A stretch of DNA of 64,000 nucleotides from assembly GCF_050920415.1 (NCBI RefSeq), contig NZ_CP169309.1. One strand, written 5' to 3'. Shown in pieces: positions 3,615-41,455 of this stretch (positions are counted from its first letter, which is position 1; each line of letters opens with the position of its first letter). A model generated the notes under the pieces. That model worked only from the letters and a program-made list of their open reading frames with translations. It had not been told where the DNA came from and made no database searches. The stretch is from Escherichia coli (GTDB taxonomy: Bacteria; Pseudomonadota; Gammaproteobacteria; Enterobacterales; Enterobacteriaceae). The position numbers and the translations under genes are program-made.

Positions 3615-3649
3615 AAAACGGGAGGAGAAGGAGCCTCCTGTTTTATTTT
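3615..3649. terminator. Intrinsic terminator downstream of envZ (hairpin with flanking A and T runs, likely bidirectional)
   Basis: AAAACGGGAGG (3615-3625) pairs with CCTCCTGTTTT (3634-3644) with one G-U wobble; loop 8 nt; T-run 3641-3649. Confidence 0.75.
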
Positions 3650-3775
3650 GTGCACTCAGTATCTACTGAATGAATACGGTTTCAGACATCGGCACCATAC
3701 GAAGTAAAGTGTACTGTAAGCTGATTGCAGGCTAGCGTATCCTGATTAGTAAAGGCACACTAAAGGAATAGCTTG

Positions 3776-5059
3776 ATGCAACTTACCAACGAAGAACAAG
3801 CACAGATTGCTCGTATAAAAGAAAAAATCCCACGCATTGCCGCACTGGATCCTGAATGTAAGTTATTCGGTTCTGAAGGTTGGAAATATCAATGGCCGAA
3901 GCCTGCCAGCGAGGCGGAAATAGCTTCCTGGGAGAAAAAACATAGCGTCACTTTGCCACGGGAATATCGAATTTTTCTTCGCTATATCGCTAATGGCGGT
4001 CCGGCACATGCCTACGGTCTTGAATCTTTAGGCGGTACAGATATTTATGGCGATATAACAAAAGAAAGCCCTGTACCGCTTTATATGACGCAGCAGGATG
4101 TTGATGTGTTGAATGCTGGCCGTACAGAAGATGATGAAGAATATAGTTTTTTTGACGGCGCATTGACCATTCTCACCCTGGGATGTACTTATGATATTTG
4201 CCTGGTGGTGACGGGGCAGTATCGCGGAAGGTTAATGCTGACTGATGGTGATGAAGATTATCCGTTTGATTTTATATATGATAAAAATTTCCTCAACTGG
4301 TATGAACGCTGGCTGGACGATTTTATTGCTGGCATGAGTATGAAGGGTTTCGATAGAAGTTTGCCAGGAACGCAAATTCAACTGCGTGAGTGGTTTTTAA
4401 CTGAGAAAATCCCGGATTTACGTAGATCCATTTTATTCTCGCTATGCCGTTTTCCACAGATAGAACCCGAAACTTTTGCCCTTTGGGAACATGTTTGCCG
4501 CACAGAGAATGATAAAGAATTGTGTGAAGAGGCATTCACAAGATTACGCCAAAAAAAAGGTTCTTGTGCTGCAGATATTTTTCGACTCTATTTTACAATG
4601 CCAGGTGAATTACGTGATATTGCTATTAAAGATCTCCGTTTTGCCTGTAGAGATAGTGTGGTGAATATTGAGGATTATATTCATTCACTGTTAATAATAA
4701 TGCCTGAACTTGACGATGACACTCTATCCTCAGCTGTCTTTGCTATACGAGAAACAGAGTATAATAAATATGATACTTTTCTGCCGCTTCTCGAACGTAT
4801 CACTGATGACCGTCAGCAAACATTATTGTGGGCGATGAGTAAGGCGCCTGATTTCAATGAAAGCCGAGGATTCGTTGAGTTGGTATTACCGCTTTTTGCA
4901 TCATCAAAGATGGAGAATGTAAGGAAGGCTATTTTGTTGCTCATTGAAGTTAAAGATAATCGTATTCCACCATTGGTTGATGAAGCTGCAACTCGTTTCC
5001 CTGAACTGACCATTTTACGAGAAAACTACTATCTCAGGACGTGGGGACATAAGCCATAA
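3776..5059 (+). CDS. Accessory protein: N-terminal SUKH-1/SMI1-KNR4-like domain plus about 230-residue helical-repeat C-terminal region (putative immunity-type protein)
   Basis: ATG 3776 with AAGGA 8 nt upstream (track start 3773 is TTG). Motif WEKKHSVTLPREYRIFLRYIANGG and later DGALTILTLGCTYDICLVVTG...FDFIYDKNFLNWYERWLDDF resemble the SMI1/KNR4 pattern. AT-rich with rare codons; absent at this position in K-12. Confidence 0.8.
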   Translation: MQLTNEEQAQIARIKEKIPRIAALDPECKLFGSEGWKYQWPKPASEAEIASWEKKHSVTLPREYRIFLRYIANGGPAHAYGLESLGGTDIYGDITKESPVPLYMTQQDVDVLNAGRTEDDEEYSFFDGALTILTLGCTYDICLVVTGQYRGRLMLTDGDEDYPFDFIYDKNFLNWYERWLDDFIAGMSMKGFDRSLPGTQIQLREWFLTEKIPDLRRSILFSLCRFPQIEPETFALWEHVCRTENDKELCEEAFTRLRQKKGSCAADIFRLYFTMPGELRDIAIKDLRFACRDSVVNIEDYIHSLLIIMPELDDDTLSSAVFAIRETEYNKYDTFLPLLERITDDRQQTLLWAMSKAPDFNESRGFVELVLPLFASSKMENVRKAILLLIEVKDNRIPPLVDEAATRFPELTILRENYYLRTWGHKP

Positions 5060-5096
5060 ATTAATGGTTCAGAAATGATCTAACGCGGAGAAAAAT

Positions 5097-5627
5097 ATGA
5101 TCAGGGAACATATTCAGCAAGCGATAAATAATAGGTTAGCATTTGATGGCCCATTCAATGTTGTTCCTGAACCTGCAAGCACTGCGTTTGATGGCCGGAT
5201 CCCGACATTGAAAAACGGTGTCTGGCAGAAGGCCAGCCCTATGTTGCAGGCGCGTTTTGCACATTGTGGACGTTGGTTAAGCGCTACACATGGAAGCTGG
5301 CTAAGTATAAGTGACATGGAAACGCTTTGGCAGGAACACATAGAAGATACGTTTCTTGATGAAATCAAAATGAATGCTGTAGCTTCAAGTGATAATTGGG
5401 ATAACCATGCCTTGGGACTATTTCGTTCTCATCGCCTGTCACTTTTTGCCGGTAGTGATTACAGTTATGAAATGGTTTTTCTCCTTTGGCTAGATAGTAC
5501 CGTTGAGCCAGAGGTCTGGGTTTATGACTGCAATGGGGAATCACGTTATAAAGATCTTAATGATTACCTGAATGCATATATTAATGATGACGTAAGCGCC
5601 TGTGAGCGCTCCTGGCGAGTAGAATGA
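5097..5627 (+). CDS. Accessory hypothetical protein (176 aa) whose C-terminal half resembles a SUKH-type immunity fold
   Basis: ATG 5097 with GGAG 6 nt upstream; C-terminal LFAGSDYSYEMVFLLWLDSTVEPEVWVYDCNGESRYKDLNDYLNAYIND resembles the SMI1/KNR4 C-terminal pattern. Stop overlaps the next start (ATGA). Confidence 0.6.
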   Translation: MIREHIQQAINNRLAFDGPFNVVPEPASTAFDGRIPTLKNGVWQKASPMLQARFAHCGRWLSATHGSWLSISDMETLWQEHIEDTFLDEIKMNAVASSDNWDNHALGLFRSHRLSLFAGSDYSYEMVFLLWLDSTVEPEVWVYDCNGESRYKDLNDYLNAYINDDVSACERSWRVE

Positions 5628-6250
5628 ATAGCCCCCCTTGCCCCTTTGATCCACAAACCGCACATTACCTCGGTACAGTGCAAATCCACTACAGCCCAAC
5701 CACCTTCAACGCTGCCGTTAAGCATTATACCTGTTACATTAAAAAGCGTTTTAAAGGGTTTAAATGGGGAATTGGAACCGCTGGCTTATTGGCTATATTG
5801 CCCATGATCCCACAATGGTTGAAACCTTCTCATGACTTTAAACTCAACGCAATCAGTACGTTAATTCTTCTATTAATGTTGCCACTCCTCTTATCAATGT
5901 TCCTGTTAATCAGCAGAAGAATTAACGATTTTAAGTCAAAAACAAAGCAAGTTACTTTTACGAAACCCGTGCGTTATGCGTTTTATTTCGAGGGGATTGT
6001 TTTTTATGAATCTCATCAGCAGGGCATACTTCGCTGGGAAGATTTGTATAGCATTGACTATGAAGAAGATTATTTGTGGCTTTTTCTGCATTTACCGAAG
6101 AGTTTTCCCAGAGAAGCGACGAAAGCGTTTTGCGATATTTTCATTCCCGCCAGCGCGATAAAAGCGCAGCCTGAACTGGATACGTTTTTTCGTGAAACAC
6201 GCCACTCGCTGGATTATCTGTTTGTCCCGTTTAATTCTGACAGAAAATAA
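5624..6250 (+). CDS. Accessory membrane protein, YcxB-like architecture (two adjacent TM helices then a soluble C-terminal domain)
   Basis: ATG 5624 overlaps the upstream stop. Hydrophobic segments WGIGTAGLLAILPMIPQWL and AISTLILLLMLPLLLSMFLLI, followed by FYFEGIVFYESHQQGILRWEDLYSIDYEEDYLWLFLHLPK. Confidence 0.6.
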   Translation: MNSPPCPFDPQTAHYLGTVQIHYSPTTFNAAVKHYTCYIKKRFKGFKWGIGTAGLLAILPMIPQWLKPSHDFKLNAISTLILLLMLPLLLSMFLLISRRINDFKSKTKQVTFTKPVRYAFYFEGIVFYESHQQGILRWEDLYSIDYEEDYLWLFLHLPKSFPREATKAFCDIFIPASAIKAQPELDTFFRETRHSLDYLFVPFNSDRK

Positions 6251-6283
6251 AAAATCCCCCGTATCTGGTGAAACGGGGGATTT
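6245..6283 (-). terminator. Intrinsic terminator of pckA
   Basis: Perfect stem AAATCCCCCGT (6252-6262) / ACGGGGGATTT (6273-6283); on the pckA strand the hairpin is followed by TTTTTTATTTT. Confidence 0.8.
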
Positions 6284-6302
6284 CGTCGCTTAACTTATCG
6301 GA

Positions 6303-8303: not shown

Positions 8304-10028
8304 ATGGATAACGTTGAACTTTCACCCGCAACACGCTGGGGGATGATTGCTACCGGATTACTTCAGGGTCTAGTTTGCTACCTACTGATCGCCTGGCTTT
8401 CCGGAAAAAATCACAGTTGGATTGTTTATGGCGTGCCTGCGACCGTCGCGTTTTCATCCGTTTTACTCTTCTCCGTGATCTCCTTTAAACAGAAGCGCCT
8501 TTGGGGATGGCTGGCGCTGGTGTTTATTGCCACGCTGGGAATGAGCGGCTGGCTGAAGTGGCAAACTGATGGCATGAACCCCTGGATAGCTGAAAAGGCG
8601 CTTTGGGATTTTGGTTGCTATCTGCTGCTGATGGCAATGTTGTTGCTACCGTGGATACAACAAAGCCTTCGCATCCGCAATGACAGTAGCCGCTATCGCT
8701 ATTTTTACCAGTCAGTATGGCATAACGTACTTATATTACTGGTGATTTTTCTCGCCAATGGCCTGACGTGGCTGGTACTTTTACTGTGGGGCGAGTTGTT
8801 TAAACTTGTTGGCATCACGTTTTTCAAAACGCTCTTTTTTGCAACCGACTGGTTTATTTATCTCACGTTAGGTCTGGTTACCGCACTGGCGGTGATCCTC
8901 GCGCGTACACAGTCACGTTTAATCGACTCTATTCAAAAGTTGTTCACGTTAATCGCCACGGGGTTGCTGCCGTTAGTATCATTGCTAACCCTGATGTTTA
9001 TCATCACCCTGCCGTTTACGGGCCTGAGCGCGATTTCTCGCCACATCTCCGCCGCCGGGTTGCTGTTGACGCTGGCCTTTTTGCAATTGATTTTAATGGC
9101 TATTGTCCGCGATCCGCAAAAAGCGTCACTTCCCTGGACGGGGCCGTTGCGTTGCCTGATTAAAACCGCTCTGCTGGCTGCTCCGCTGTATGTGTTCGTC
9201 GCCGCCTGGGCGTTATGGCTGCGGGTCGCTCAGTACGGCTGGACTGTCGACCGCTTGCAGGGCACGCTGGCGGTGCTGGTGTTACTGGTATGGTCGCTGG
9301 GGTATTTTGTCAGTATCGTCTGGCGTAAAGGGCAAACCCCTCTTGTTCTTCAGGGCAAAGTGAACCTTGCGGTTTCGTTATTGGTGTTGGTAATACTGGT
9401 GCTTCTTAATTCGCCGGTGCTGGATAGTATGCGCATTAGTGTGAACAGTCATATGGCACGTTATCAGAGCGGCAAGAACACGCCAGATCAGGTAAGTCTC
9501 TACATGCTCGAACAGAACGGTCGCTATGGACGTGCGGCGCTTGAGTCGCTGAAAAGCGATGCCGAGTATATGAAAGACCCGAAACGCGCACGGGATCTGC
9601 TGATGACGTTAGATGGAGAGCAACATCTTCAGGAACAGGTATCGGAAAAAGTATTAGCCGAAAATGTGTTAATTGCCCCAGGCTCTGGCAAACCGGATAC
9701 GGCATTCTGGTCGGCCTTAATCCAGGATCGCTATAACGTGATGACCTGTATTGAAAAAGACGCCTGCGTACTGGTCGAGCAAGATCTGAATAGTGATGGT
9801 CAGGCGGAGCGGATCCTGTTTGCTTTTAATGATGACAGAGTCATTGTCTATGGCTTTGACTCAGATAGAAAAGAATGGGACGCGCTTGATATGAGTTTAC
9901 TTCCGAACGAAATAACGAAAGAAAAATTACTCACAGCTGCGAAGGATGGAAAGCTGGGGACGAGGCCGAAAGCGTGGCGCGATCTGACGGTAGATGGTGA
10001 AACGCTAGAAATAAACTTAAGCAAATGA
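8304..10028 (+). CDS. yhgE: Inner membrane protein YhgE (multi-pass, function unknown)
   Basis: 574 aa with many hydrophobic helices; positional and sequence match to the gene next to pckA in E. coli. Confidence 0.88.
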
Positions 10029-10084
10029 CAATGCTTTTATCGGATACGACGCTTTATCTTACCAACAATAACTTGCGAATTATT

Positions 10085-10117
10085 GCGTAGGCCTGGTAAG
10101 CGCAGCGCATCAGGCCA
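10085..10117. repeat. REP (repetitive extragenic palindrome) element
   Basis: GTAGGCCTGGTAAGCGCAGCGCATCAGGCC, a REP-type imperfect palindrome in the yhgE-hslO spacer. Confidence 0.65.
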
Positions 10118-28191: not shown

Positions 28192-28217
28192 AAAACCGGG
28201 GGAACCCGGTTTTTTTA
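28192..28217 (+). terminator. Intrinsic terminator after trpS
   Basis: AAAAACCGGG-GGAA-CCCGGTTTTTTT. Confidence 0.8.
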
Positions 28218-28335
28218 TCCTCTTTTTGCAATAATCCGAAAAAATGTGAAGCGCCTCGCCATTTTCATATCTCACAGTTGCCACTTATCTTCAATTTAAT
28301 GAAGATATAAATATTCACTTTATTGAAAATTTACT

Positions 28336-29241
28336 ATGCGTCGAACGTTTATCAAAAAAGAAGGCGTCGTCATCACGACACTGGCCCGTTATTTGTTGGG
28401 TGAAAAGTGCGGTAATCGACTGAAAACCATAGATGAACTGGCAACTGAATGCCATTCATCGGTTGGTCTGACACAGGCCGCGTTGAAAACGCTGGAATCA
28501 AGCGGAGCGATACGGATAGAACGCCGTGGGCGCAATGGCAGTTATCTGGTGGAAATGGATAACAAAGCGCTGCTGAGTCATGTGGATATCAATAACGTTG
28601 TGTGTGCCATGCCTTTGCCCTATACCCGCTTGTACGAAGGTTTAGCAAGCGGGCTGAAAGCCCAGTTTGATGGCATTCCTTTTTACTATGCGCATATGCG
28701 CGGCGCGGATATTCGCGTGGAGTGTTTGCTTAACGGTGTCTATGACATGGCGGTGGTTTCCCGACTGGCGGCAGAAAGTTATCTCACGCAAAAAGGCTTA
28801 TGCCTCGCGCTGGAGTTGGGGCCGCATACCTACGTTGGTGAGCATCAGTTGATTTGCCGTAAAGGGGAGTCTGCAAAGGTGAAACGCGTGGGGCTGGATA
28901 ACCGTTCGGCGGATCAGAAAATTATGACCGATGTCTTTTTTGGCAGTAGCGATGTAGAACGTGTCGATCTCTCATATCACGAGAGTTTACAACGCATTGT
29001 TAAAGGCGATGTCGATGCGGTGATCTGGAATGTGGTAGCGGAGAGCGAACTGGCCATGCTGGGATTAGAAGCGATGCCACTGACGAACGATCTGCGATTT
29101 TTACAGGCTACTGAAGCCGTGATACTAACGCGTGCCGATGATTACCCAATGCAACAACTGCTGCGTGCAGTGGTTGATAAACAGGCCCTGCTTGCCCATC
29201 AACAACGAGTGGTGAGTGGGGAACAGGAACCCAGTTATTAA
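28336..29241 (+). CDS. yhfZ: Putative regulator YhfZ (first gene of the cryptic yhfZ-yhfS cluster)
   Basis: 301 aa; matches the E. coli gene downstream of trpS. Confidence 0.85.
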   Translation: MRRTFIKKEGVVITTLARYLLGEKCGNRLKTIDELATECHSSVGLTQAALKTLESSGAIRIERRGRNGSYLVEMDNKALLSHVDINNVVCAMPLPYTRLYEGLASGLKAQFDGIPFYYAHMRGADIRVECLLNGVYDMAVVSRLAAESYLTQKGLCLALELGPHTYVGEHQLICRKGESAKVKRVGLDNRSADQKIMTDVFFGSSDVERVDLSYHESLQRIVKGDVDAVIWNVVAESELAMLGLEAMPLTNDLRFLQATEAVILTRADDYPMQQLLRAVVDKQALLAHQQRVVSGEQEPSY

Positions 29242-29257
29242 ATGAAAGGCATCTGAA

Positions 29258-29620
29258 ATGGAAACCAGACTCAACCTGCTTTGCGAGGCAGGCGTTATTG
29301 ATAAGGACATCTGCAAAGGCATGATGCAGGTCGTCAAGGTACTGGAAACCGAATGCCATTTGCCAGTGCGCAGCGAGCAAGGAATGATGGCGATGACACA
29401 TATGGCGAGCGCACTGATGCGCAGTCGCCGTGGTGAAGAAATAGAGCCGCTGGATAACGAATTGCTGGCAGAGCTGGCGCAATCCAGCCACTGGTCAGCC
29501 ATTTTACAATTGCATCAGGTGTTGTTGAAGGAATTCGCACTGGAAGTTAACCCGTGTGAAGAAGGCTATTTGCTGGCCAACCTTTATGGATTATGGATGG
29601 CTGCTAACGAAGAGGTTTGA
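29258..29620 (+). CDS. yhfY: Uncharacterized protein YhfY
   Basis: 120 aa METRLNLLCEAGVIDKDICKGMM... Confidence 0.85.
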   Translation: METRLNLLCEAGVIDKDICKGMMQVVKVLETECHLPVRSEQGMMAMTHMASALMRSRRGEEIEPLDNELLAELAQSSHWSAILQLHQVLLKEFALEVNPCEEGYLLANLYGLWMAANEEV

Positions 29621-29703
29621 GGCTCCCGACAAATCCACGTCGCACAACCTAAATATTCAAAAAAATGAATATTTAATTCAAGGAACAGAAACGAGGCAAC
29701 AAG

Positions 29704-30867
29704 ATGTTTGTAGAAGCATTGAAACGCCAGAACCCGGCACTGATTTCCGCCGCACTAAGATTGTGGCAACAGGGCAAGATCGCCCCGGACAGTTGGGTAA
29801 TCGACGTCGATCAGATACTGGAAAACGGTAAGCGGCTGATTGAGACGGCGCGGCTTTACGGCATTGAACTGTATCTGATGACCAAGCAGTTTGGTCGTAA
29901 TCCGTGGCTGGCAGAAAAACTGCTGGCGCTGGGTTACAGCGGCATTGTGGCGGTGGATTACAAAGAGGCACGAATCATGCGCCGCGCAGGTTTACCGGTG
30001 GCGCATCAGGGGCATCTGGTACAAATCCCTTGTCATCAGGTTGCTGACGCCGTTGAACAGGGCACCGACGTCATCACCGTGTTTACACTCGACAAAGCGC
30101 GGGAAGTTTCTGCGGCAGCGGTGACGGCCGGGCGGGTCCAGCCTGTGCTGCTCAAAGTTTATAGCGACGATGATTTTCTTTATCCGGGGCAGGAGAGCGG
30201 TTTTGCACAGCATTCGCTGCATGAGGTGGTTGCTGAAATCCAGAAACTACCGGGGTTACATTTAGCCGGATTAACCCATTTCCCTTGCCTGCTATGGGAT
30301 GAGGCTGCCGGGAAAGTTTTGCCAACACCGAACCTCCAGACGCTGGTCAATGCTCGTAACCAACTTCTGAAGTCTGGAGTTGTACTTGAGCAATTAAACG
30401 CGCCTTCAGCGACCAGCTGCACTTCGCTGCCATTACTGGCGGAATACGGTGTGACTCATGCCGAACCCGGCCATGCGCTGACGGGGACGATTCCGGCAAA
30501 CCAGCAGGGCGACCAACCTGAACGTATCGCCATGCTTTGGCTGAGCGAAATTTCCCATCACTTCCGTGGCGACAGCTACTGCTACGGCGGCGGTTATTAC
30601 CGTCGTGGTCACGCGCAACATGCGCTGGTGTTTACGCCAGAAAATCAAAGCATTACTGAAACATATCTCAAAGCCGTAGATGACAGCAGTATCGACTACA
30701 CCCTGCCGCTGGCAGGCGAGCATTCGGTAAGCAGTGCTGTGGTGCTCTGCTTTCGCACGCAGATTTTTGTCAGCCGTAGCGATGTGGTGCTGGTATCGGG
30801 TATTCAGCGCGGCGCGGCAGAAATTGTGGGGCGTTATGACAGCCTCGGTAACCCTCTGGAGGCGTAA
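29704..30867 (+). CDS. yhfX: Uncharacterized YhfX (alanine-racemase-fold PLP enzyme family)
   Basis: 387 aa; stop overlaps the yhfW start. Confidence 0.85.
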
Positions 30868-32093
30868 TGGCGCGATTTGTGGTGTTAGTGATTGATAGCT
30901 TTGGCGTAGGCGCAATGAAAGATGTCACGTTGGTGCGCCCACAGGATGCCGGGGCGAATACCTGTGGTCACATCCTGAGCCAGTTGCCGCATTTGCAGCT
31001 ACCAACGCTGGAGAAAATGGGGCTAATCAACGCATTAGGTTATGCGCCAGGCGATATGCAGCCGTCAGACTCCGCAACCTGGGGCGTGGCAGAGTTGCAA
31101 CATGAAGGTGGCGACACCTTTATGGGGCATCAGGAAATTTTAGGCACGCGCCCGTTACCGCCGCTGCGGATGCCCTTTCGCGATGTGATTGACCGTGTTG
31201 AACAGGCATTAGTCACCGCTGGCTGGCGGGTTGAGCGCCGTGGCGAAGAGTTGCAATTTCTGTGGATTAATCAGTCGGTTGCCATTGGCGATAACCTCGA
31301 GGCGGATTTAGGCCAGGTCTATAACATCACCGCCAATCTCTCTGCGATCTCTTTTGACGACGCAATCAAAATTGGTCGTATCGTGCGTGAGCAGGTACCG
31401 GTCGGTCGGGTCATTACATTTGGCGGCCTGTTAACCGACAGCCAGCGCATTCTCGATGCGGCTGAAAGTAAAGAAGGGCGCTTTATTGGCATAAATGCGC
31501 CGCGTTCTGGCGCTTATGACAATGGCTTCCAGGTCGTACATATGGGCTACGGCGTCGATGAAAAAGTGCAGGTGCCGCACCAACTGCATCAAGTGGGCGT
31601 GCCCACGGTGCTGGTGGGTAAGGTGGCAGATATCGTCAGCAATCCTTATGGCGTGAGCTGGCAAAACCTGGTGGATAGCCAGCGGATTATGGATGTCACC
31701 CTTGACGAATTTAACACGCATCAGACGGCGTTTATTTGCACCAATATCCAGGAAACCGACCTCGCTGGTCACGCAGAAGACGTCGCACGTTATGCCGAAC
31801 GTTTGCAGGTCGTTGACCGTAACCTTGTCCGGCTTGTTGAGGCGATGCAGCCAGATGATTGCCTGGTCGTGATGGCGGATCACGGTAACGATCCGACCAT
31901 TGGTCACAGCCACCATACCCGTGAAGTAGTGCCAGTGCTGGTTTATCAGCAAGGGCTGGTCCACACGCAACTCGGTGTGCGCACCACGCTTTCTGATGTG
32001 GGGGCTACCGTGTGTGAATTTTTCCGTGCGCCACCGCCACAAAATGGTCGCTCTTTTCTTTCCTCCCTCCGGTTTGCAGGAGACACCCTATGA
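30867..32093 (+). CDS. yhfW: Uncharacterized YhfW (phosphopentomutase/metalloenzyme-like)
   Basis: 408 aa; ATGA overlap with php. Confidence 0.85.
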
Positions 32094-32968
32094 GTTTTGA
32101 TCCGACGGGCTTCACCCTCGCCCATGAGCATCTGCATATTGATCTCTCCGGCTTTAAAAACAACGTGGACTGCCGCCTTGATCAGTATGCGTTCATTTGC
32201 CAGGAGATGAACGACCTGATGGCACTGGGGGTGCGTAATGTGATTGAGATGACCAACCGTTACATGGGGCGCAATGCACAATTTATGCTCGATGTAATGC
32301 ACGAGACGGGGATCAACGTGGTGGCCTGCACCGGTTATTACCAGGACGCGTTTTTCCCGCAACATGTGGCGACCCGCAGTGTGCAGGAACTGGCGCAGGA
32401 GATGGTCGATGAAATTGAACAGGGTATCGATGGCACGGAGCTGAAAGCCGGGATCATCGCGGAGATCGGCTCCAGCGAAGGAAAGATTACGCCGCTGGAA
32501 GAGAAAGTTTTTATTGCCGCCGCGCTGGCACATAACCAGACCGGACGCTCGATCTCCACGCATACGTCGTTCAGCACGATGGGGCTGGAGCAATTGGCTC
32601 TGTTGCAAGCCCACGGAGTTGATCTTTCGCGCGTCACCGTTGGTCACTGCGATCTGAAAGACAACCTCGACAACATTTTGAAGATGATCGATCTCGGCGC
32701 CTATGTACAGTTCGACACCATTGGCAAGAACAGTTACTACCCGGACGAAAAGCGCATTGTGATGCTTCATGCGCTACGCGACCGTGGGTTGCTGAACCGC
32801 GTCATGCTGTCGATGGATATTACGCGCCGCTCTCATTTAAAAGCCAACGGTGGTTATGGCTATGACTATTTATTAACCACCTTTATTCCGCAATTGCGCC
32901 AGTCAGGATTCAGTCAGGCCGATGTGGATGTGATGTTACGTGAAAATCCCTCTCAATTTTTCCAATAA
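32090..32968 (+). CDS. php: Phosphotriesterase homology protein
   Basis: 292 aa [22 protein letters not shown] (HxH metal-binding motif of the amidohydrolase/PTE family). Confidence 0.9.
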
Positions 32969-32978
32969 GGACAGACTC

Positions 32979-33332
32979 ATGAAAAAGATTGGTGTTGCAG
33001 GCTTACAGCGTGAGCAGATTAAAAAAACCATTGAAGCGACGGCTCCTGGCTGTTTTGAAGTTTTCATTCATAACGACATGGAAGCGGCGATGAAGGTGAA
33101 ATCCGGGCAACTGGATTACTACATCGGCGCGTGTAATACCGGTGCGGGCGCGGCATTGTCGATTGCCATCGCGGTGATTGGCTATAACAAAAGTTGCACC
33201 ATTGCCAAGCCGGGCATTAAAGCGAAAGACGAGCATATCGCCAAAATGATCGCCGAAGGGAAAGTGGCGTTTGGGCTTTCCGTTGAGCACGTCGAACATG
33301 CGATTCCGATGCTGATTAACCATCTGAAATAA
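32979..33332 (+). CDS. yhfU: Uncharacterized protein YhfU
   Basis: MKKIGVAGLQREQIKKTIEA...; 117 aa. The track ORF starts upstream inside php. Confidence 0.82.
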   Translation: MKKIGVAGLQREQIKKTIEATAPGCFEVFIHNDMEAAMKVKSGQLDYYIGACNTGAGAALSIAIAVIGYNKSCTIAKPGIKAKDEHIAKMIAEGKVAFGLSVEHVEHAIPMLINHLK

Positions 33333-33343
33333 AAGGCACGACT

Positions 33344-34648
33344 ATGGATCTGTATATTCAGATTATCGTGGTGGCGTGCCTGACGGGTATGACATCGCTT
33401 CTGGCGCATCGCTCGGCAGCCGTTTTTCATGACGGTATCCGCCCGATCCTGCCGCAACTGATTGAAGGCTATATGAACCGTCGTGAGGCGGGGAGTATCG
33501 CTTTTGGTCTGAGCATTGGTTTTGTGGCCTCGGTGGGGATCTCTTTTACCCTGAAAACCGGGTTGCTCAACGCATGGTTACTCTTTCTTCCTACCGATAT
33601 CCTCGGCGTACTGGCGATAAACAGCCTGATGGCGTTTGGCCTTGGTGCACTCTGGGGCGTACTGATCCTCACCTGCCTGCTGCCGGTAAACCAGCTGCTG
33701 ACCGCGCTACCGGTGGATGTATTAGGTAGTCTGGGGGAATTAAGCTCGCCAGTGGTTTCAGCTTTTGCACTGTTCCCGTTGGTGGCGATTTTCTACCAGT
33801 TTGGCTGGAAGCAAAGTCTGATCGCCGCCGTGGTAGTGTTGATGACCCGTGTGGTGGTAGTGCGCTATTTCCCGCATCTCAATCCGGAATCCATCGAAAT
33901 CTTTATTGGCATGGTGATGCTGCTGGGGATCGCGATAACTCACGACCTGCGTCATCGTGATGAAAATGATATTGATGCCAGCGGGCTTTCGGTGTTTGAA
34001 GAACGCACGTCGCGGATTATCAAAAACTTACCGTATATCGCCATCGTAGGGGCGCTGATTGCCGCAGTTGCCAGCATGAAGATTTTTGCTGGTAGTGAAG
34101 TGTCGATCTTCACCCTGGAGAAAGCATATTCCGCAGGCGTTACACCGGAGCAATCGCAAACGCTGATCAACCAGGCGGCGCTGGCGGAATTTATGCGCGG
34201 GCTGGGCTTTGTGCCGTTGATTGCCACCACCGCGTTAGCAACAGGTGTGTATGCCGTTGCGGGCTTTACCTTTGTTTATGCGGTGGGCTATCTCTCTCCG
34301 AATCCGATGGTTGCGGCGGTATTAGGCGCAGTGGTTATTTCGGCAGAAGTCCTGTTACTTCGTTCGATCGGCAAATGGCTGGGACGCTACCCATCGGTAC
34401 GTAATGCGTCGGATAACATCCGTAACGCCATGAATATGCTGATGGAAGTGGCTCTGCTGGTCGGTTCTATTTTCGCAGCAATTAAGATGGCGGGCTATAC
34501 CGGATTCTCCATCGCGGTTGCCATTTACTTCCTCAACGAATCCCTGGGCCGTCCGGTACAGAAAATGGCGGCACCGGTCGTAGCCGTAATGATCACCGGC
34601 ATCCTGCTGAATGTTCTTTACTGGCTTGGTCTGTTCGTTCCGGCTTAA
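33344..34648 (+). CDS. yhfT: Inner membrane protein YhfT (multi-pass)
   Basis: 434 aa, many hydrophobic helices. Confidence 0.86.
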   Translation: MDLYIQIIVVACLTGMTSLLAHRSAAVFHDGIRPILPQLIEGYMNRREAGSIAFGLSIGFVASVGISFTLKTGLLNAWLLFLPTDILGVLAINSLMAFGLGALWGVLILTCLLPVNQLLTALPVDVLGSLGELSSPVVSAFALFPLVAIFYQFGWKQSLIAAVVVLMTRVVVVRYFPHLNPESIEIFIGMVMLLGIAITHDLRHRDENDIDASGLSVFEERTSRIIKNLPYIAIVGALIAAVASMKIFAGSEVSIFTLEKAYSAGVTPEQSQTLINQAALAEFMRGLGFVPLIATTALATGVYAVAGFTFVYAVGYLSPNPMVAAVLGAVVISAEVLLLRSIGKWLGRYPSVRNASDNIRNAMNMLMEVALLVGSIFAAIKMAGYTGFSIAVAIYFLNESLGRPVQKMAAPVVAVMITGILLNVLYWLGLFVPA

Positions 34649-34659
34649 GGAAGGTACCT

Positions 34660-35745
34660 ATGAAGACGTTTCCTTTGCAAAGCCTGACGCTTATTGAAGC
34701 GCAGCAAAAGCAGTTTGCGTTGGTGGATACGATTTGCCGTCATTTTCCCGGCAGCGAGTTTCTTACACGCGGGGATTTAGGCTTAACGCCAGGGCTGAAT
34801 CAACCGCGTATTACTCAGCGTGTGGAGCAGGTGCTGGCTGATGCGTTTCATGCGCCAGCGGCGGCGCTGGTACAGGGCGCAGGTACTGGAGCGATTCGTG
34901 CGGCGCTGGCAGCTTTGCTCAAACCGGGGCAGCGTCTTCTGGTGCATGACGCGCCGGTTTACCCGACGACTCAGGTCATTATTGCGCAGATGGGGCTGAC
35001 GCTTATCACTGCTGATTTTAATGACCTGTCGGCACTGAAGCAGGTCGTCGACGAGCAACAACCAGATGCCGCGCTGGTGCAGCATACGCGCCAACAGCCG
35101 CAGGACAGCTATGTGCTGGCAGATGTGCTGGCAACATTGCGTTCGGCTGGCGTTCCTGCGTTAACCGATGACAATTATGCGGTGATGAAGGTGGCTCGAA
35201 TTGGCTGCGAATGCGGCGCGAATGTTTCGACATTCTCCTGTTTCAAGCTGTTTGGACCAGAGGGTGTTGGCGCAGTGGTAGGTGATGCCGATGTTATTAA
35301 CCGGATCCGCGCCACGCTCTATTCCGGCGGCAGTCAGATCCAGGGCGCACAGGCGCTGGAAGTATTGCGTGGTCTGGTGTTTGCGCCAGTCATGCACGCG
35401 GTGCAGGCGGGGGTATCTGAACGGTTGCTGGATTTACTTAACGGTGGCGCGGTGGCGGAAGTTAAAAGCGCCGTTATTGCCAATGCGCAGTCGAAGGTGT
35501 TGATTGTGGAGTTTCATCAACCGATTGCCGCCAGAGTGCTTGAAGAGGCGCAAAAGCGCGGCGCGTTGCCTTACCCGGTCGGCGCAGAGTCAAAATATGA
35601 AATCCCGCCGCTCTTTTATCGACTTTCCGGAACGTTTCGTCAGGCGAATCCGCAATTAGAACATTGTGCAATTCGCATTAACCCGAATCGCAGCGGTGAT
35701 GAGACGGTATTGCGGATTTTGCGCGAGAGTATTGCCAGCGTTTAA
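34660..35745 (+). CDS. yhfS: Uncharacterized YhfS (PLP-dependent transferase-like)
   Basis: 361 aa; last gene of the cluster. Confidence 0.85.
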   Translation: MKTFPLQSLTLIEAQQKQFALVDTICRHFPGSEFLTRGDLGLTPGLNQPRITQRVEQVLADAFHAPAAALVQGAGTGAIRAALAALLKPGQRLLVHDAPVYPTTQVIIAQMGLTLITADFNDLSALKQVVDEQQPDAALVQHTRQQPQDSYVLADVLATLRSAGVPALTDDNYAVMKVARIGCECGANVSTFSCFKLFGPEGVGAVVGDADVINRIRATLYSGGSQIQGAQALEVLRGLVFAPVMHAVQAGVSERLLDLLNGGAVAEVKSAVIANAQSKVLIVEFHQPIAARVLEEAQKRGALPYPVGAESKYEIPPLFYRLSGTFRQANPQLEHCAIRINPNRSGDETVLRILRESIASV

Positions 35746-35775
35746 TTCTGGGAACGATGTTTTCGCAGAGGATGG

Positions 35776-35809
35776 AGAAAAATACGCCCTCGGAAAATTC
35801 AGAGGGCGT
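35776..35809 (-). terminator. Intrinsic terminator downstream of yhfL
   Basis: Stem ACGCCCTC (35784-35791) / GAGGGCGT (35802-35809); on the minus strand followed by ATTTTTCTCC. Confidence 0.6.
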
Positions 35810-35849
35810 TAGCTCATTAAATCGGTGTTAGCCGATTTCTGTCAGAGAC

Positions 35850-36017
35850 TTACTGTGCAGTAGGACCGCAACCGCCAATGATTTTAGAAATAGAAATTGC
35901 CGGGTGCAGCAGGTAGTCGTAAGAGCAGTTCTTATCACGGTTTTCAATATGACCAGTACATGCAGTTAACGTAGCCAGTACTGCACCTACCAGTGCAACT
36001 TTAATAAATTTGTTCAT
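35850..36017 (-). CDS. yhfL: Small lipoprotein YhfL
   Basis: Not in the ORF track (55 aa). Minus-strand ATG 36017 gives MNKFIK...TACTGHIENRDKNCSYDYLLHPAISISKIIGGCGPTAQ, with a lipobox (LTAC). Confidence 0.85.
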   Translation of the reverse strand: MNKFIKVALVGAVLATLTACTGHIENRDKNCSYDYLLHPAISISKIIGGCGPTAQ

Positions 36018-36219
36018 TTACATTCCCTATGTATTATATATTAATTAATATTCATTGATTATATGAATATAAGCGGACTGCTCATAAAGAACGATACAGG
36101 AATATTTAATTGGCGTCAGTGAGTGAATGACTTAATTTTGTAAGTCGCTGTAACGGTGAATATAATCCATTAGCAAATGATATTTATTAAGAGGGTATGC
36201 TTTATTTGCTGAATATATA

Positions 36220-36258
36220 AAAAGAGTGATAAAGAGGGCCAGAATTATCTGGCCCGGG
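36220..36258 (-). terminator. Probable terminator after cysG
   Basis: GGGCCAGA-ATTA-TCTGGCCC hairpin; T-rich tract on the minus strand. Confidence 0.55.
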
Positions 36259-36263
36259 TAAAA

Positions 36264-37637
36264 TTAATGGTTAGAGAACCAGTTCAATTTATCGCGCAGG
36301 CCAACGACCCGACCAATAATAATTAATGAGGGACTGTTCATTTGCTGCGCCAGCTCGCCCAGTTGCGTGAGCGTACCGTCAATCACGCGTTGCGTTACCG
36401 CCGTACCGTTTTCGACAATCGCCACCGGCATTTCGCAAGGCATTCCGTGTTCAATCAGTTTTTGCTGAATGGTCGCGGCCTGATTAAGCCCCATATAGAA
36501 CACCAGCGTCTGTTTTTCGGCTGCCAGGTTTTCCCAGTCCAGCTCGCCACCGGTTTTTAAGTGTCCGGTAATTAAGCGTACGCTCTGAGCATAATCGCGA
36601 TGCGTGAGCGGAATGCCCGAATAGGCAGAGCAACCAGACGCTGCGGTAATACCTGGAACCACCGAGAACGGAATGCCTGCATTGCACAGTGTTTCCAGCT
36701 CTTCGCCACCACGGCCAAAAATAAACGGATCGCCGCCTTTCAGCCGCACCACGCGTTTGCCTTTTTGCGCTTCCCGCAGCAGGATCTGGTTAATCTCTTC
36801 CTGCGGTACGCAGTGGTATCCCGCGCGTTTGCCGACGAAAACGCGATCAGCATCGCGGCGTACCAGATTCATAATATCGTCAGAAACCAGACGGTCGTAG
36901 ACCACCACATCTGCCTGCTGAATTTGTTGCAGTCCTTTTAGTGTCAGCAGACCGGCATCGCCCGGACCTGCGCCAACCAGCACCACTTCACCGCGATGAT
37001 CGAGCGGTTCATTGATTAACTGTTCGGTCGTTTCGGTAATGGCTTTCTGATCGTTGTTCGCCAGCGACTGCGCCAGGCGATCATTAACGAACAGTTTTTC
37101 CCAGAAACGGCGACGTTCACCCATCGTGGCGAACTGTCGTTTGACCCGACCGCGTAACTGCCCCGCATATTTTGCTACCTGGCCGAGATGCAGCGGCAGC
37201 AGTGATTCAAGTTTTTCGCGCAACAGTCGCGCCAGAACCGGAGAGGTGCCGCCAGAGGAGACCGCTACCATGAGCGGGGAGCGGTCAATAATCGACGGCA
37301 TAATAAAGCTGGCGGCTTTCGGCGCATCGACCACGTTACAGAAGATACGACGAGATTCGGCGGCTTCGCTGACACGCTGGTTAAGCGCGTCATCATCCGT
37401 CGCCGCAATTGCCAGCCAGCAGGTGTCGAGAAGGCTTTCATCAAATGGCCCTTCGACGAGGGTTAACATGCCTGCATCTGCCCATGCGGTGAACTGTGGA
37501 ATAAACGCTAATGCATTCACCGTTAAGCGAGCACCTGCGTCTAACAGCAACCTTGCTTTGCGTTCCGCGACATCACCACCGCCGACAATCAAACAGTCGC
37601 GGTCGCGTAATTGGCAAAATATAGGCAAATGATCCAC
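36264..37637 (-). CDS. cysG: Siroheme synthase (multifunctional CysG)
   Basis: 457 aa [40 protein letters not shown]... Confidence 0.96.
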
Positions 37638-37655
37638 GTAAAAACCCCTTAATAA

Positions 37656-38462
37656 TTAACCGGCAGCCGTTTCAGTTTGATTAAATTTGTCCGCAACCGG
37701 ACGATTAGCTTTCGGCGTAGCATACCAATAACCCAATCCCATGAATACGGCACCCGATAAAGTATTACCCAGCGTCACCCACAGCAGGTTATGACCAATA
37801 CCCGCCAGCGTGTAGGCTTCGCTGTGGTTGCCGAACCATGAGAGCGCGAACAGCGTCATGTTAGCGATGGAGTGCTCGTAACCGGACGCAATAAACGCCA
37901 GCAGACACCACCAGATTGCGATAAATTTCGCCGCGCCTTCAGTACGCAGTGCCATCCAGATTGCCAGACAAACCAGCCAGTTACACAATGCGCCTTTGAA
38001 GAACAGTACCATTGCCGGTGCGGTGGTTTTAGCCAGCGCGACGGAGTGAACAATACTGGTATCTACTGGCAAAAGGCTACCACCGCCCCAGCTATAAAGC
38101 ATGGCAACAAAGACGGAACCGACCAGGTTACCCAGCCAGGTTTGCGGCAGGATTGCCCACATTTGCCCGTGGCTAATGGTGCCCGCTTTCACCCCAAAGG
38201 TGAGGAACATGGTGTGTCCGGTGAACAGTTCAGAACCGGCGATAATGACCAGCGTTAAGGCGATACCAAAGGTCGCGCCCATCACCAGAGGACGTACGGA
38301 CGGATCGAGCAAATTACCGAGCGTGAAAATCAGGATGATCCCCAGCCCCACATACGCGCCCGCCATCGCGGAGCTTACCCAGAAGCCGAGCGGGTTATTT
38401 GCCGACAGGCGTGCAATGCGCGCAGCGTTAGCCGCACACTTATTAATAGTGTCTGTAAACAT
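37656..38462 (-). CDS. nirC: Nitrite transporter NirC (FNT family)
   Basis: 268 aa, multi-TM, MFTDTINKCAANAARIARLSANNPLGFWVSSAMAGAYVGLG... Confidence 0.95.
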   Translation of the reverse strand: MFTDTINKCAANAARIARLSANNPLGFWVSSAMAGAYVGLGIILIFTLGNLLDPSVRPLVMGATFGIALTLVIIAGSELFTGHTMFLTFGVKAGTISHGQMWAILPQTWLGNLVGSVFVAMLYSWGGGSLLPVDTSIVHSVALAKTTAPAMVLFFKGALCNWLVCLAIWMALRTEGAAKFIAIWWCLLAFIASGYEHSIANMTLFALSWFGNHSEAYTLAGIGHNLLWVTLGNTLSGAVFMGLGYWYATPKANRPVADKFNQTETAAG

Positions 38463-38588
38463 TTGATTATCCTTTAAAAAATAAAAACAAAAAATAAAAC
38501 AAAAAGTTTAAAAAATGTCCTGCAATATACTTAAGGTCATTACAGGACAATGCAAAAAGGGGAGGCATTGCGCCTCCCGTTAAAACAA

Positions 38589-38915
38589 TTAACCGCGTAG
38601 CTGTACCACGCCGTCTTTCACTCGTGCCTCGTAATGCTTGACGGAAAACTGTTCATCTTCCATGCATAAACCGTCGCTTAAGCGAAAACGCTGTTTTTTC
38701 AGCGGACTGGCGACCCACAGCTCGCCCTGGTGTTCCGCAATCAGCCCGCGTGACAGCACGCTGGATTCGAAGAACGGATCGATGTTGCTGATCGCAAACA
38801 CCTGGTCGCTGTGATACGGGCGGAAAATCGCTACCTGCTCGTCACCTAACAGCGCGCAGACGCCGGTTTCAGGCAGGATGTCATCAATTTTGCAGATGTC
38901 TTTCCACTGGCTCAT
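38589..38915 (-). CDS. nirD: Nitrite reductase (NADH) small subunit
   Basis: 108 aa MSQWKDICKIDDILPETGVCALLGDEQVAIF... Confidence 0.95.
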   Translation of the reverse strand: MSQWKDICKIDDILPETGVCALLGDEQVAIFRPYHSDQVFAISNIDPFFESSVLSRGLIAEHQGELWVASPLKKQRFRLSDGLCMEDEQFSVKHYEARVKDGVVQLRG

Positions 38916-41455
38916 GCGTTGTCCTCCACCAGAGTTACCGGGATACGTTCATACGGCGTTGCCGGACGGTGCTGTTCGCGCTCTGGCACCATCTGCACGT
39001 TCGGGTCACGCTTGTCGCTGTTGATGAAGTGTTTGAAGCGAATCTGCGCGGACGGTGTATTGACCGTTTCAGTCCACTCACACACTACCGCTTCACGCAG
39101 GCGCGCCATCTCTTCTTCCAGATGTGCGTTCAGCCCCAGCTTGTCGTCAATGATCACCGCTTTCAGGTAATCGATGCCGCCTTCGAGGTTTTCTAACCAC
39201 GGTGCGGTACGCGTCAGTTTGTCGGCAGTACGGATGTAGAACATCATGAAGCGGTCAAGATATTTGATCAGCGTTTCGCGATCGATATCCGCTGCCAGCA
39301 GATCCGCATGACGCGGTTTCATGCCGCCGTTACCGCACACATACAGGTTCCAGCCTTTTTCGGTGGCGATAATACCTACGTCTTTACCCTGAGCTTCTGA
39401 ACATTCACGGGTACAGCCGGAGACACCGAACTTCATTTTGTGCGGCGTACGGATGCCTTTGTAGCGGTTTTCCAGTTCCACGCCGAGGCCGACGCTGTCG
39501 CCAACGCCATAGCGGCACCAGGTGCTACCCACGCAGGTTTTCGCCATACGCAGTGCTTTCGCATAGGCATGACCGGTTTCGAAACCTGCTTCAATCAGCT
39601 GACGCCAGATCTCCGGCAGATCGTCTTTCTGTGCGCCAAACATCGCCAGACGCTGGGAGCCGGTGATTTTGGTGTAGAGATTAAATTCACGCGCGATACG
39701 ACCCACTGCCATCAGCCCTTCTGGGGTGATTTCACCACCCGGAGAACGCGGGATCACCGAGTAGGTGCCGTCTTTCTGGATGTTAGCGAGGAAGTTGTCG
39801 TTAGAATCCTGCAGCGGAGTATGTTCCGGCTTCAGAATGTATTCGTTCCAGCAGGAGGCCAGCAGCGAACCGACGGTCGGTTTACAAACCTCACAACCGT
39901 AGCCTTTACCGTGTTTCGCCAGCAGTTCTTCGAAGGTTTTAATGCCTTCAACGCGGATCAAATGGAACAGTTCCTGACGCGAATAAGCAAAGTGTTCGCA
40001 CAGGTTATTGTTAACTTCGATACCCTGTTTTGCCAGTTCCGCGTTCAGTACCTGAGTGACCAGCGGGATACAGCCACCGCAGCCAGTACCCGCTTTGGTT
40101 TCGGCTTTCAGCGCCGCAACGGTGTGGCAGCCTTTGTTGATGGCAGCAATCAGATCGCCTTTGGTGACGTCGAAGCAGGAGCAGATTTGCGCGCTGTCCG
40201 GCAGTTTATCAACACCAATAGACGGCTTGCCGCTACCTGAGTGCGCCGGCAGGATCAGGGAATCCGGGTTTTCCGGCAGTTCGATTGCGTTCAGCACCAG
40301 TTGCAGCAGGTTACCGTAGTCGCTGGTATCACCCACCAGTACTGCACCGAGCAGGGTTTTGTTGTCTTCGCTGACAATCAGGCGTTTGTAGATCTCTTTA
40401 CTTTCGTCGAGGTAAACGTAGCTACGTGCGCCAGGCGTGCGACCGTGAGCATCGCCAATACCGCCTACGTCTACGCCAAGCAGTTTCAGCTTGGCGCTAA
40501 GGTCAGCACCTTCAAAGGCGTTTTCGCTACCGAGAATATGGTCAACGGCGACCTGCGCCATTTTGTAGCCAGGTGCTACCAGACCAAATACACGGTTGTT
40601 CCAGCTTGCGCATTCACCGATGGCGTAGATATCTGGATCGGAAGTCTGGCAGGAATCATTAATGACGATACCCCCACGAGGAGCAACGTCCAGACCACAC
40701 TGGGTTGCCAGCTTATCGCGCGGACGGATACCGGTAGAGAAGACGATAAAGTCGACTTCCAGTTCGCTGCCGTCGGCAAAACGCATGGTTTTACGCGCTT
40801 CGACACCTTCCTGCACAATCTCAAGAGTGTTTTTGCTGGTGTGAACGCGTACACCCATGCTTTCGATTTTGCGACGCAATTGCTCGCCGCCCATCTGATC
40901 AAGCTGTTCCGCCATCAGCATAGGGGCAAATTCGATAACGTGGGTTTCAATGCCTAAGTTTTTCAGCGCGCCAGCGGCTTCCAGACCTAACAGGCCGCCG
41001 CCAACAACGGCACCGCGCTTACTGCGACGGGCGCAGGATTCAATGGCGTTGAGGTCTTCAATGGTGCGATAGACAAAGCAGTCCTGAGTATCAGAACCTT
41101 TGATTGGCGGGATCCACGGATAGGAACCGGTCGCCATGATCAGCTTGTCATAAAAAACGGTACGTCCGGCGCTGGAGTGAATCACCTTCTCCTGACGGTT
41201 GATGGTGATAGCGCGTTCGCCGACCAGAACTTTAATACCGTGTTTTTCGTAAAAGCCTTCGCGCACCAGCGACAGCTCTTCGGCGGTGTGGTGAGAGAAG
41301 TAAGACGAGAGGTGTACGCGGTCATAAGCGATGCGCGGTTCTTCACAGAAAACGGTAATATCAAAGTTGGCCGCATCAGATTTATCAAGAAGATCTTCGA
41401 TAAAGCGATGGCCGACCATACCGTTACCGATAATTGCGAGTCTGACTTTGCTCAT
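38912..41455 (-). CDS. nirB: Nitrite reductase (NADH) large subunit
   Basis: 847 aa; N-terminal FAD/NAD fold MSKVRLAIIGNGMVGHRF; ATG 41455. Confidence 0.96.
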   Translation of the reverse strand: MSKVRLAIIGNGMVGHRFIEDLLDKSDAANFDITVFCEEPRIAYDRVHLSSYFSHHTAEELSLVREGFYEKHGIKVLVGERAITINRQEKVIHSSAGRTVFYDKLIMATGSYPWIPPIKGSDTQDCFVYRTIEDLNAIESCARRSKRGAVVGGGLLGLEAAGALKNLGIETHVIEFAPMLMAEQLDQMGGEQLRRKIESMGVRVHTSKNTLEIVQEGVEARKTMRFADGSELEVDFIVFSTGIRPRDKLATQCGLDVAPRGGIVINDSCQTSDPDIYAIGECASWNNRVFGLVAPGYKMAQVAVDHILGSENAFEGADLSAKLKLLGVDVGGIGDAHGRTPGARSYVYLDESKEIYKRLIVSEDNKTLLGAVLVGDTSDYGNLLQLVLNAIELPENPDSLILPAHSGSGKPSIGVDKLPDSAQICSCFDVTKGDLIAAINKGCHTVAALKAETKAGTGCGGCIPLVTQVLNAELAKQGIEVNNNLCEHFAYSRQELFHLIRVEGIKTFEELLAKHGKGYGCEVCKPTVGSLLASCWNEYILKPEHTPLQDSNDNFLANIQKDGTYSVIPRSPGGEITPEGLMAVGRIAREFNLYTKITGSQRLAMFGAQKDDLPEIWRQLIEAGFETGHAYAKALRMAKTCVGSTWCRYGVGDSVGLGVELENRYKGIRTPHKMKFGVSGCTRECSEAQGKDVGIIATEKGWNLYVCGNGGMKPRHADLLAADIDRETLIKYLDRFMMFYIRTADKLTRTAPWLENLEGGIDYLKAVIIDDKLGLNAHLEEEMARLREAVVCEWTETVNTPSAQIRFKHFINSDKRDPNVQMVPEREQHRPATPYERIPVTLVEDNA

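Follow-up and report, generated by a model that had tools for sequence, protein, structure and literature searches.

The frlABCDR-free yhfS-yhfL junction of an Escherichia strain probably preserves the ancestral state of the locus

We analyzed a stretch of 64,000 nucleotides (hereafter, the window) from the Escherichia coli assembly GCF_050920415.1, contig NZ_CP169309.1, in which yhfS and yhfL converge on a short spacer and the fructoselysine operon frlABCDR, which lies between them in K-12, is absent. It is very probable that this junction is ancestral in the lineage of the strain and that other E. coli lineages gained frlABCDR through a single insertion.

The yhfS-yhfL junction in the window

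The yhfS gene is located at 34660-35745 on the plus strand and encodes an intact PLP-dependent aminotransferase of 361 amino acids. It is the final gene of the operon yhfZYXW-php-yhfUTS, and yhfZ, yhfY, yhfX, yhfW, php, yhfU and yhfT were all found upstream of it on the plus strand. In NZ_CP169399.1, a record that is 100% identical, the gene is likewise annotated as yhfS. The yhfL gene is located at 35850-36017 on the minus strand and encodes a DUF4223 lipoprotein of 55 amino acids (the Pfam family DUF4223 is recorded on an identical protein); beyond it, cysG, nirC, nirD and nirB lie on the minus strand. By tblastn, YhfL was 100% identical to K-12 YhfL over 55 amino acids. The amino acid identity of YhfS to the K-12 protein was 95.8%, and the nucleotide identity of the gene was only 91.1% (dS 0.38).

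The spacer between the two convergent genes occupies 35746-35849 and measures 104 bp from stop codon to stop codon. The first-pass annotation of this DNA had given 35745 as the end of yhfS and 35850 as the end of yhfL, and the list of open reading frames agreed with these coordinates and with the gene order. The arrangement is that of an empty junction, in which yhfL and yhfS converge at a distance of approximately 100 bp with no gene between them, at the position occupied by frlABCDR in K-12. When the five K-12 Frl proteins were compared with the 64-kb window, no tblastn match was obtained at E <= 1e-3; the window thus holds none of the members of the operon, namely the genes for the FrlA permease, the FrlB deglycase, the FrlC epimerase, the FrlD kinase and the FrlR regulator. 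In the region 35000-36800, no Rfam family matched at E <= 1.

A hairpin at 35776-35809 on the minus strand is predicted, from folding and from the conservation of its stem, to be the intrinsic terminator of yhfL. Pairing of ACGCCCUC/GAGGGCGU forms the stem, in which positions 35802-35809 pair with 35784-35791 on the minus strand, and the U-run AUUUUUCU follows directly at 35783-35776 on the same strand. A G+C-rich stem-loop followed by a U-run on the transcribed strand is the form of a rho-independent terminator. The fold of the yhfL 3' region was -26.3 kcal/mol (z = -3.8 against shuffles). The stem of 8 bp, with six G-C pairs, is invariant in all of the 12 Escherichia sequences compared, K-12 and E. 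albertii among them, and one inner pair of the hairpin is altered on both sides among these sequences. The hairpin was not reported by a consensus terminator scan because its loop exceeds the 8-nt limit of the scan, and folding and alignment were used in its place. The same coordinates had been assigned to the hairpin at first reading, and both the fold and the invariant stem show that they are accurate. Judging from these features, it is considered that 35776-35809 probably acts as the rho-independent terminator of yhfL.

The exchange between the window and K-12

In MG1655, the annotated gene order is cysG-yhfL-frlA-frlB-frlC-frlD-frlR-yhfS, with yhfS on the opposite strand (b3369-b3376). The position given to frl in the first-pass annotation, between yhfL and yhfS, agrees with the MG1655 annotation, and the objection that the operon might belong to a different locus does not hold. 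The absence of frlABCDR from the junction, which it also claimed, was confirmed by blastn against K-12 and by tblastn with the Frl proteins, and no frl gene appeared on re-inspection. The K-12 locus otherwise resembles that of the window in having the same flanking genes in the same orientation, a conserved yhfL terminator and an identical YhfL protein, whereas yhfS is only 91% identical and K-12 has 5242 bp where the window has 29 bp.

When the window was aligned with 80 kb of K-12 by blastn, homology ended at 35751 and resumed at 35772, leaving 5235 bp in K-12 against 20 bp in the window. A more exact reading was obtained from strain GPEC1240 (NZ_CM142783.1; L005 415-2020), which is devoid of frl and yet has K-12-like flanks, with identities to K-12 of 99.9% in yhfS, 100% in yhfL and its terminator and 99.6% in the yhfL-cysG spacer. 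Comparison of GPEC1240 with K-12 gives an exchange of the 29 bp CTTGTGAATGATGTTTTCGAAAAGAATGC for the 5242 bp at K-12 3499692-3504933. The equivalent of the 29 bp in the window is 35747-35775, which aligns with the spacers of GPEC1240, locus L023 and E. albertii and is without a counterpart in frl-bearing genomes. GPEC1240 is either a haplotype that precedes the insertion or a recombination product that ends exactly at the insertion site.

The 5242 bp of K-12 contain the frlA promoter region, frlABCD, frlR and the repeat-rich frlR-yhfS spacer. The G+C content of the frl block is 53.8%, as compared with 53.6-54.0% in the flanks, so the composition is uninformative as to whether the block is foreign. 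The block does not have the form of a mobile genomic island: it carries only frlABCDR, encodes no integrase, does not deviate in composition, and its repeats are within chance. Two candidate signatures, an ATTTAA repeat taken as a target-site duplication and a spacer-like similarity upstream of frlA, were rejected as being at chance level, since 13 of 500 and 1271 of 2000 shuffles, respectively, reached the observed scores. At the distal end of the block, the K-12 frlR-yhfS spacer (L001 9785-9935) contains the palindromic repeats GCCGGATAAG...CATCCGGC and CCCTCTCCCC...GGGGCGAGGGG, which we take to resemble REP and BoxC elements.

Gene content of the interval in E. coli

Among 5426 complete E. 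coli genomes, the contiguous yhfS-yhfL junction was found in 2105 and frlABCDR in 3300, always on the chromosome and almost always in one copy; yhfL is adjacent to frlA in 3295 genomes. Both arrangements were equally frequent among ten distinct contexts on contigs that encode an identical YhfL. The empty and the filled junction are thus a major dimorphism of E. coli and not a peculiarity of the strain of the window. Strain SMS-3-5, for example, has the empty junction and is without frl.

At least three states of gene content occur in the yhfL-trpS interval of E. coli: yhf only, frl with yhf, and frl only. The O157:H7 locus shows the last of these and is the opposite of the window, in that frl is present, the whole yhfS-yhfZ operon is absent and frlR adjoins trpS. 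The deletion of the yhf operon in O157:H7 begins inside a stretch of repeats that corresponds to the K-12 frlR-yhfS spacer. In O157:H7 strain NE 1169-1 (NZ_CP038324.1; L054 4844-6275), frlD contains an internal stop and is annotated as a pseudogene. In several strains from pigs and cattle (H111-H115, e.g. NZ_CP075462.1 400372-403149), an IS1 transposase gene is present within the stretch from the 3' part of cysG through yhfL to the 5' part of frlA, and an additional element interrupts frlA in NZ_CP103739.1.

Divergence of the yhf operon beside the junction

The region 28193-39000, which covers the yhfZ-yhfS operon, cysG and nirC, is the part of the window that is most divergent from K-12, with identities of 89-96% per kb against about 97-99% elsewhere. 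The dS values of yhfS, yhfX and yhfZ (0.34-0.38) are approximately twice those of the flanking genes (about 0.15-0.2), with dN/dS of 0.05-0.14. The alleles of yhfS differ by 8-12% between E. coli lineages and by about 5-12% within clade I. At first reading, two points of accessory-gene flux had been described in an otherwise conserved region, one at this junction and the other between envZ and pck. The envZ-pck insert was confirmed by the blastn comparison with K-12. The flux of frl lies on the K-12 side, however, and the region cannot be called conserved, the yhfZ-yhfS operon being its most divergent part.

Origin of the two arrangements

The polarity of the exchange was examined by a YhfL search with one genome per species. 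At least 39 loci were obtained and screened with the K-12 proteins; E. fergusonii, E. marmotae, E. ruysiae and Salmonella are not among the matches listed. In every non-E. coli locus among these matches that has both genes, yhfL converges directly on yhfS without frl. The outgroups with this empty junction are E. albertii, Citrobacter werkmanii, Citrobacter sp. FP75, Superficieibacter electus, Buttiauxella agrestis and Enterobacter sp. ENT03. The empty junction is likewise present in SCPM-O-B-8794, another GTDB species representative that carries the label E. coli, and only the E. coli representative E69 carries frl among the matches listed. As in the window, the two genes converge in E. albertii and Citrobacter, separated by a spacer of about 80-110 bp that includes a terminator hairpin. 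A base-for-base alignment with the window was obtained for the E. albertii spacer, whereas the Citrobacter and Enterobacter spacers differ in their hairpin sequence and could be aligned only at the coding ends.

The empty-site spacers of Escherichia (the window, GPEC1240, 2022N21-074, FHI_NMBU_03, 25DN, SCPM-O-B-8794 and E. albertii) could be aligned over their full length, including the 29 nt missing from filled sites. Since many substitutions are found among them, the empty arrangement is considered to be old. Together, the adjacency in the outgroups and the homology of the spacers show that the empty site is the ancestral one. In addition, the filled sites share their ends. The breakpoint on the yhfL side, 10 nt past the terminator stem, is common to K-12, E69 and O157:H7, and that on the yhfS side, one base past the yhfS stop codon, is common to K-12 and E69. 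These shared breakpoints point to a single insertion. As the filled site is devoid of the 29-bp spacer, the event was a replacement and not a simple insertion.

Based on these results, we suppose that in the ancestral enterobacterial state yhfL and yhfS converged on a short spacer containing the yhfL rho-independent terminator. frlABCDR would have entered this spacer once, in an ancestor of the other E. coli lineages in which it is now seen (K-12, E69 and O157:H7), and the incoming block of 5.24 kb would have replaced the 29 bp immediately beyond the yhfL terminator. Homologous recombination in the conserved flanks may later have carried the block from one yhf haplotype to another. In keeping with such a spread, one and the same frl block lies beside very different yhfS alleles (90.1% identity between K-12 and E69). 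In the lineage of the window, the operon would never have been present, and its strain, which groups with Escherichia cryptic clade I, would simply keep the empty site.

A broader reading is that the yhfL-trpS interval is a long-lived structural polymorphism rather than the site of a simple gain, in which homologous recombination in the flanks transfers the frl block from one haplotype to another, and that the deep yhf alleles reflect balancing selection or repeated introgression linked to the use of diet-derived Amadori compounds. The depth of the yhf alleles fits this reading, which we regard as possible but rather doubtful.

The precise deletion of an ancestral frlABCDR, of which the junction would be the scar, is very unlikely. 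This was the sense of the first-pass annotation, in which the frl genes were described as missing as a clean block. The equal G+C content of frl and its flanks is what would be expected of a long-resident operon, and GPEC1240, with its K-12-like flanks, could be read as a recent loss. A deletion, however, could not recreate a sequence that is missing from the filled site, and the spacer, with the 29 nt, shows homology to the E. albertii spacer and is common, with many SNPs, to clade I, SMS-3-5 and other frl-less lineages. Furthermore, six outgroup species other than E. coli (E. albertii and species of other genera) have yhfL adjacent to yhfS, and no repeat or significant microhomology flanking the K-12 block was found when local and positional alignments were compared with shuffles. 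The deletion is therefore already largely refuted. Of the earlier description, the absence of frl stands, whereas the implied loss is contradicted by the outgroups and the spacer homology, and the exchange of 29 bp for 5242 bp is not a perfectly clean one.

The strain and the absence of frl from its chromosome

Over the stretches searched, the window is 100% identical to NZ_CP169399.1, the chromosome of strain MFDS1022581 from an animal-source food in Korea. With the 24 kb at 36000-60000, only 18 genomes showed an identity of at least 98.4%, and all others were at or below 96.9%. Seventeen of them are relatives at 98.4-99.0%, including 2013C-4282 and EC42405, which have been named among the completely sequenced strains of Escherichia cryptic clade I (PMC10100065). 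Judging from this one 24-kb region, the strain of the window likely belongs with cryptic clade I. That it is not K-12, as had been concluded at first reading, is borne out by this grouping. Four relatives that were inspected (N96, R32_14_1F, 2017-02-2CC and 2013C-4282) have the same empty junction, with a spacer of 104-107 bp, a length range also seen in SMS-3-5 and in other strains devoid of frl.

An empty junction would also result if frl had been relocated elsewhere on the chromosome or onto a plasmid. As for this possibility, NZ_CP169399.1 and the 17 related chromosomes were searched with a chimeric query, composed of 2.5 kb of the yhf allele of the window and 2 kb of K-12 frlB-frlD, at megablast sensitivity (roughly at least 85% identity). 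The yhf part gave the only match, at a single place on each chromosome; thus, no frlBCD match was present on any of them at this sensitivity. The search of the rest of the genome that had been proposed for frl genes was in this way made on the 100% identical chromosome NZ_CP169399.1, and none was detected. Across the 5426 genomes, no plasmid gave an frl match, and the empty-junction and frl-positive genomes together account for 5405 of the 5426, so that few genomes could belong to both classes. Nothing speaks directly for relocation. A simple yhfL-frlA adjacency is missing from about five frl-positive genomes (3300 against 3295), some of which may be explained by IS insertions. We consider that relocation is scarcely credible. 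An artefact of the assembly or of the window, by collapse or mis-joining, can practically be dismissed, as 2105 independently finished genomes and an E. albertii assembly show the identical contiguous junction, and both yhfS and yhfL are intact.

Predicted phenotype and relation to earlier reports

According to papers that cite Wiame and Van Schaftingen, FrlA acts in uptake, FrlD as the kinase, FrlB as the deglycase and FrlC as the epimerase. Since it would lack the transporter, the kinase, the deglycase and the epimerase, the strain of the window is predicted not to use fructoselysine or psicoselysine, and hence not to grow on them; by the same prediction, cryptic clade I as a whole is apparently unable to use them. 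These substrates are Amadori compounds that heated food contains in abundance, and adaptation of E. coli to them takes place in the mouse gut. The frl genes have been reported to be targeted repeatedly when E. coli adapts to this environment, and the yhfL-frlA intergenic region to be an adaptive target in germ-free mice.

Strains of phylogroup B2 are reported to lack both the frl operon and the fructoselysine transporter, which is among the most discriminating metabolic differences (PMC5996543), and the absence of frl has been called a hallmark of B2 (preprint 10.1101/2025.09.14.675865). The frl-negative B2 strains share with the window the same presence/absence polymorphism of frlABCDR at yhfL-yhfS and the same predicted inability on fructoselysine and psicoselysine; the window, in contrast, groups with cryptic clade I and not with B2. 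The papers on B2 describe the absence or the dispensing of the enzymes, whereas our analysis of the junction points to an ancestral state. The polarity usually implied in the literature would thereby be corrected, in that B2, F and clade I would keep the ancestral junction rather than have lost the operon. The empty and filled junctions offer a simple and unambiguous typing marker. The frl-less junction itself is an ordinary and already documented accessory-gene polymorphism, which opens no new question and is of limited practical use. It is only mildly unusual, in the divergent yhf operon beside the site and in the three or more gene-content states of the interval.

Other differences from K-12

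The envZ-pck insert occupies 3645-6301 of the window (2.66 kb) and has a G+C content of 41.9%, as compared with 51.6% for the window. Its three open reading frames (3773-5059, 5097-5627 and 5624-6250) lie on one strand and are annotated in RefSeq as an SMI1/KNR4 family protein and two hypothetical proteins; none of the three gave an NCBIfam or PADLOC match. Members of the SMI1/KNR4 family often serve as immunity proteins in polymorphic toxin systems. Near window position 28193 there is a small indel, in which K-12 is longer by about 130 bp (3512487-3512615, between trpS and yhfZ). Furthermore, the stretch at 10007-10103, between hslO and yhgE, is not alignable with the 25 bp that K-12 has there.
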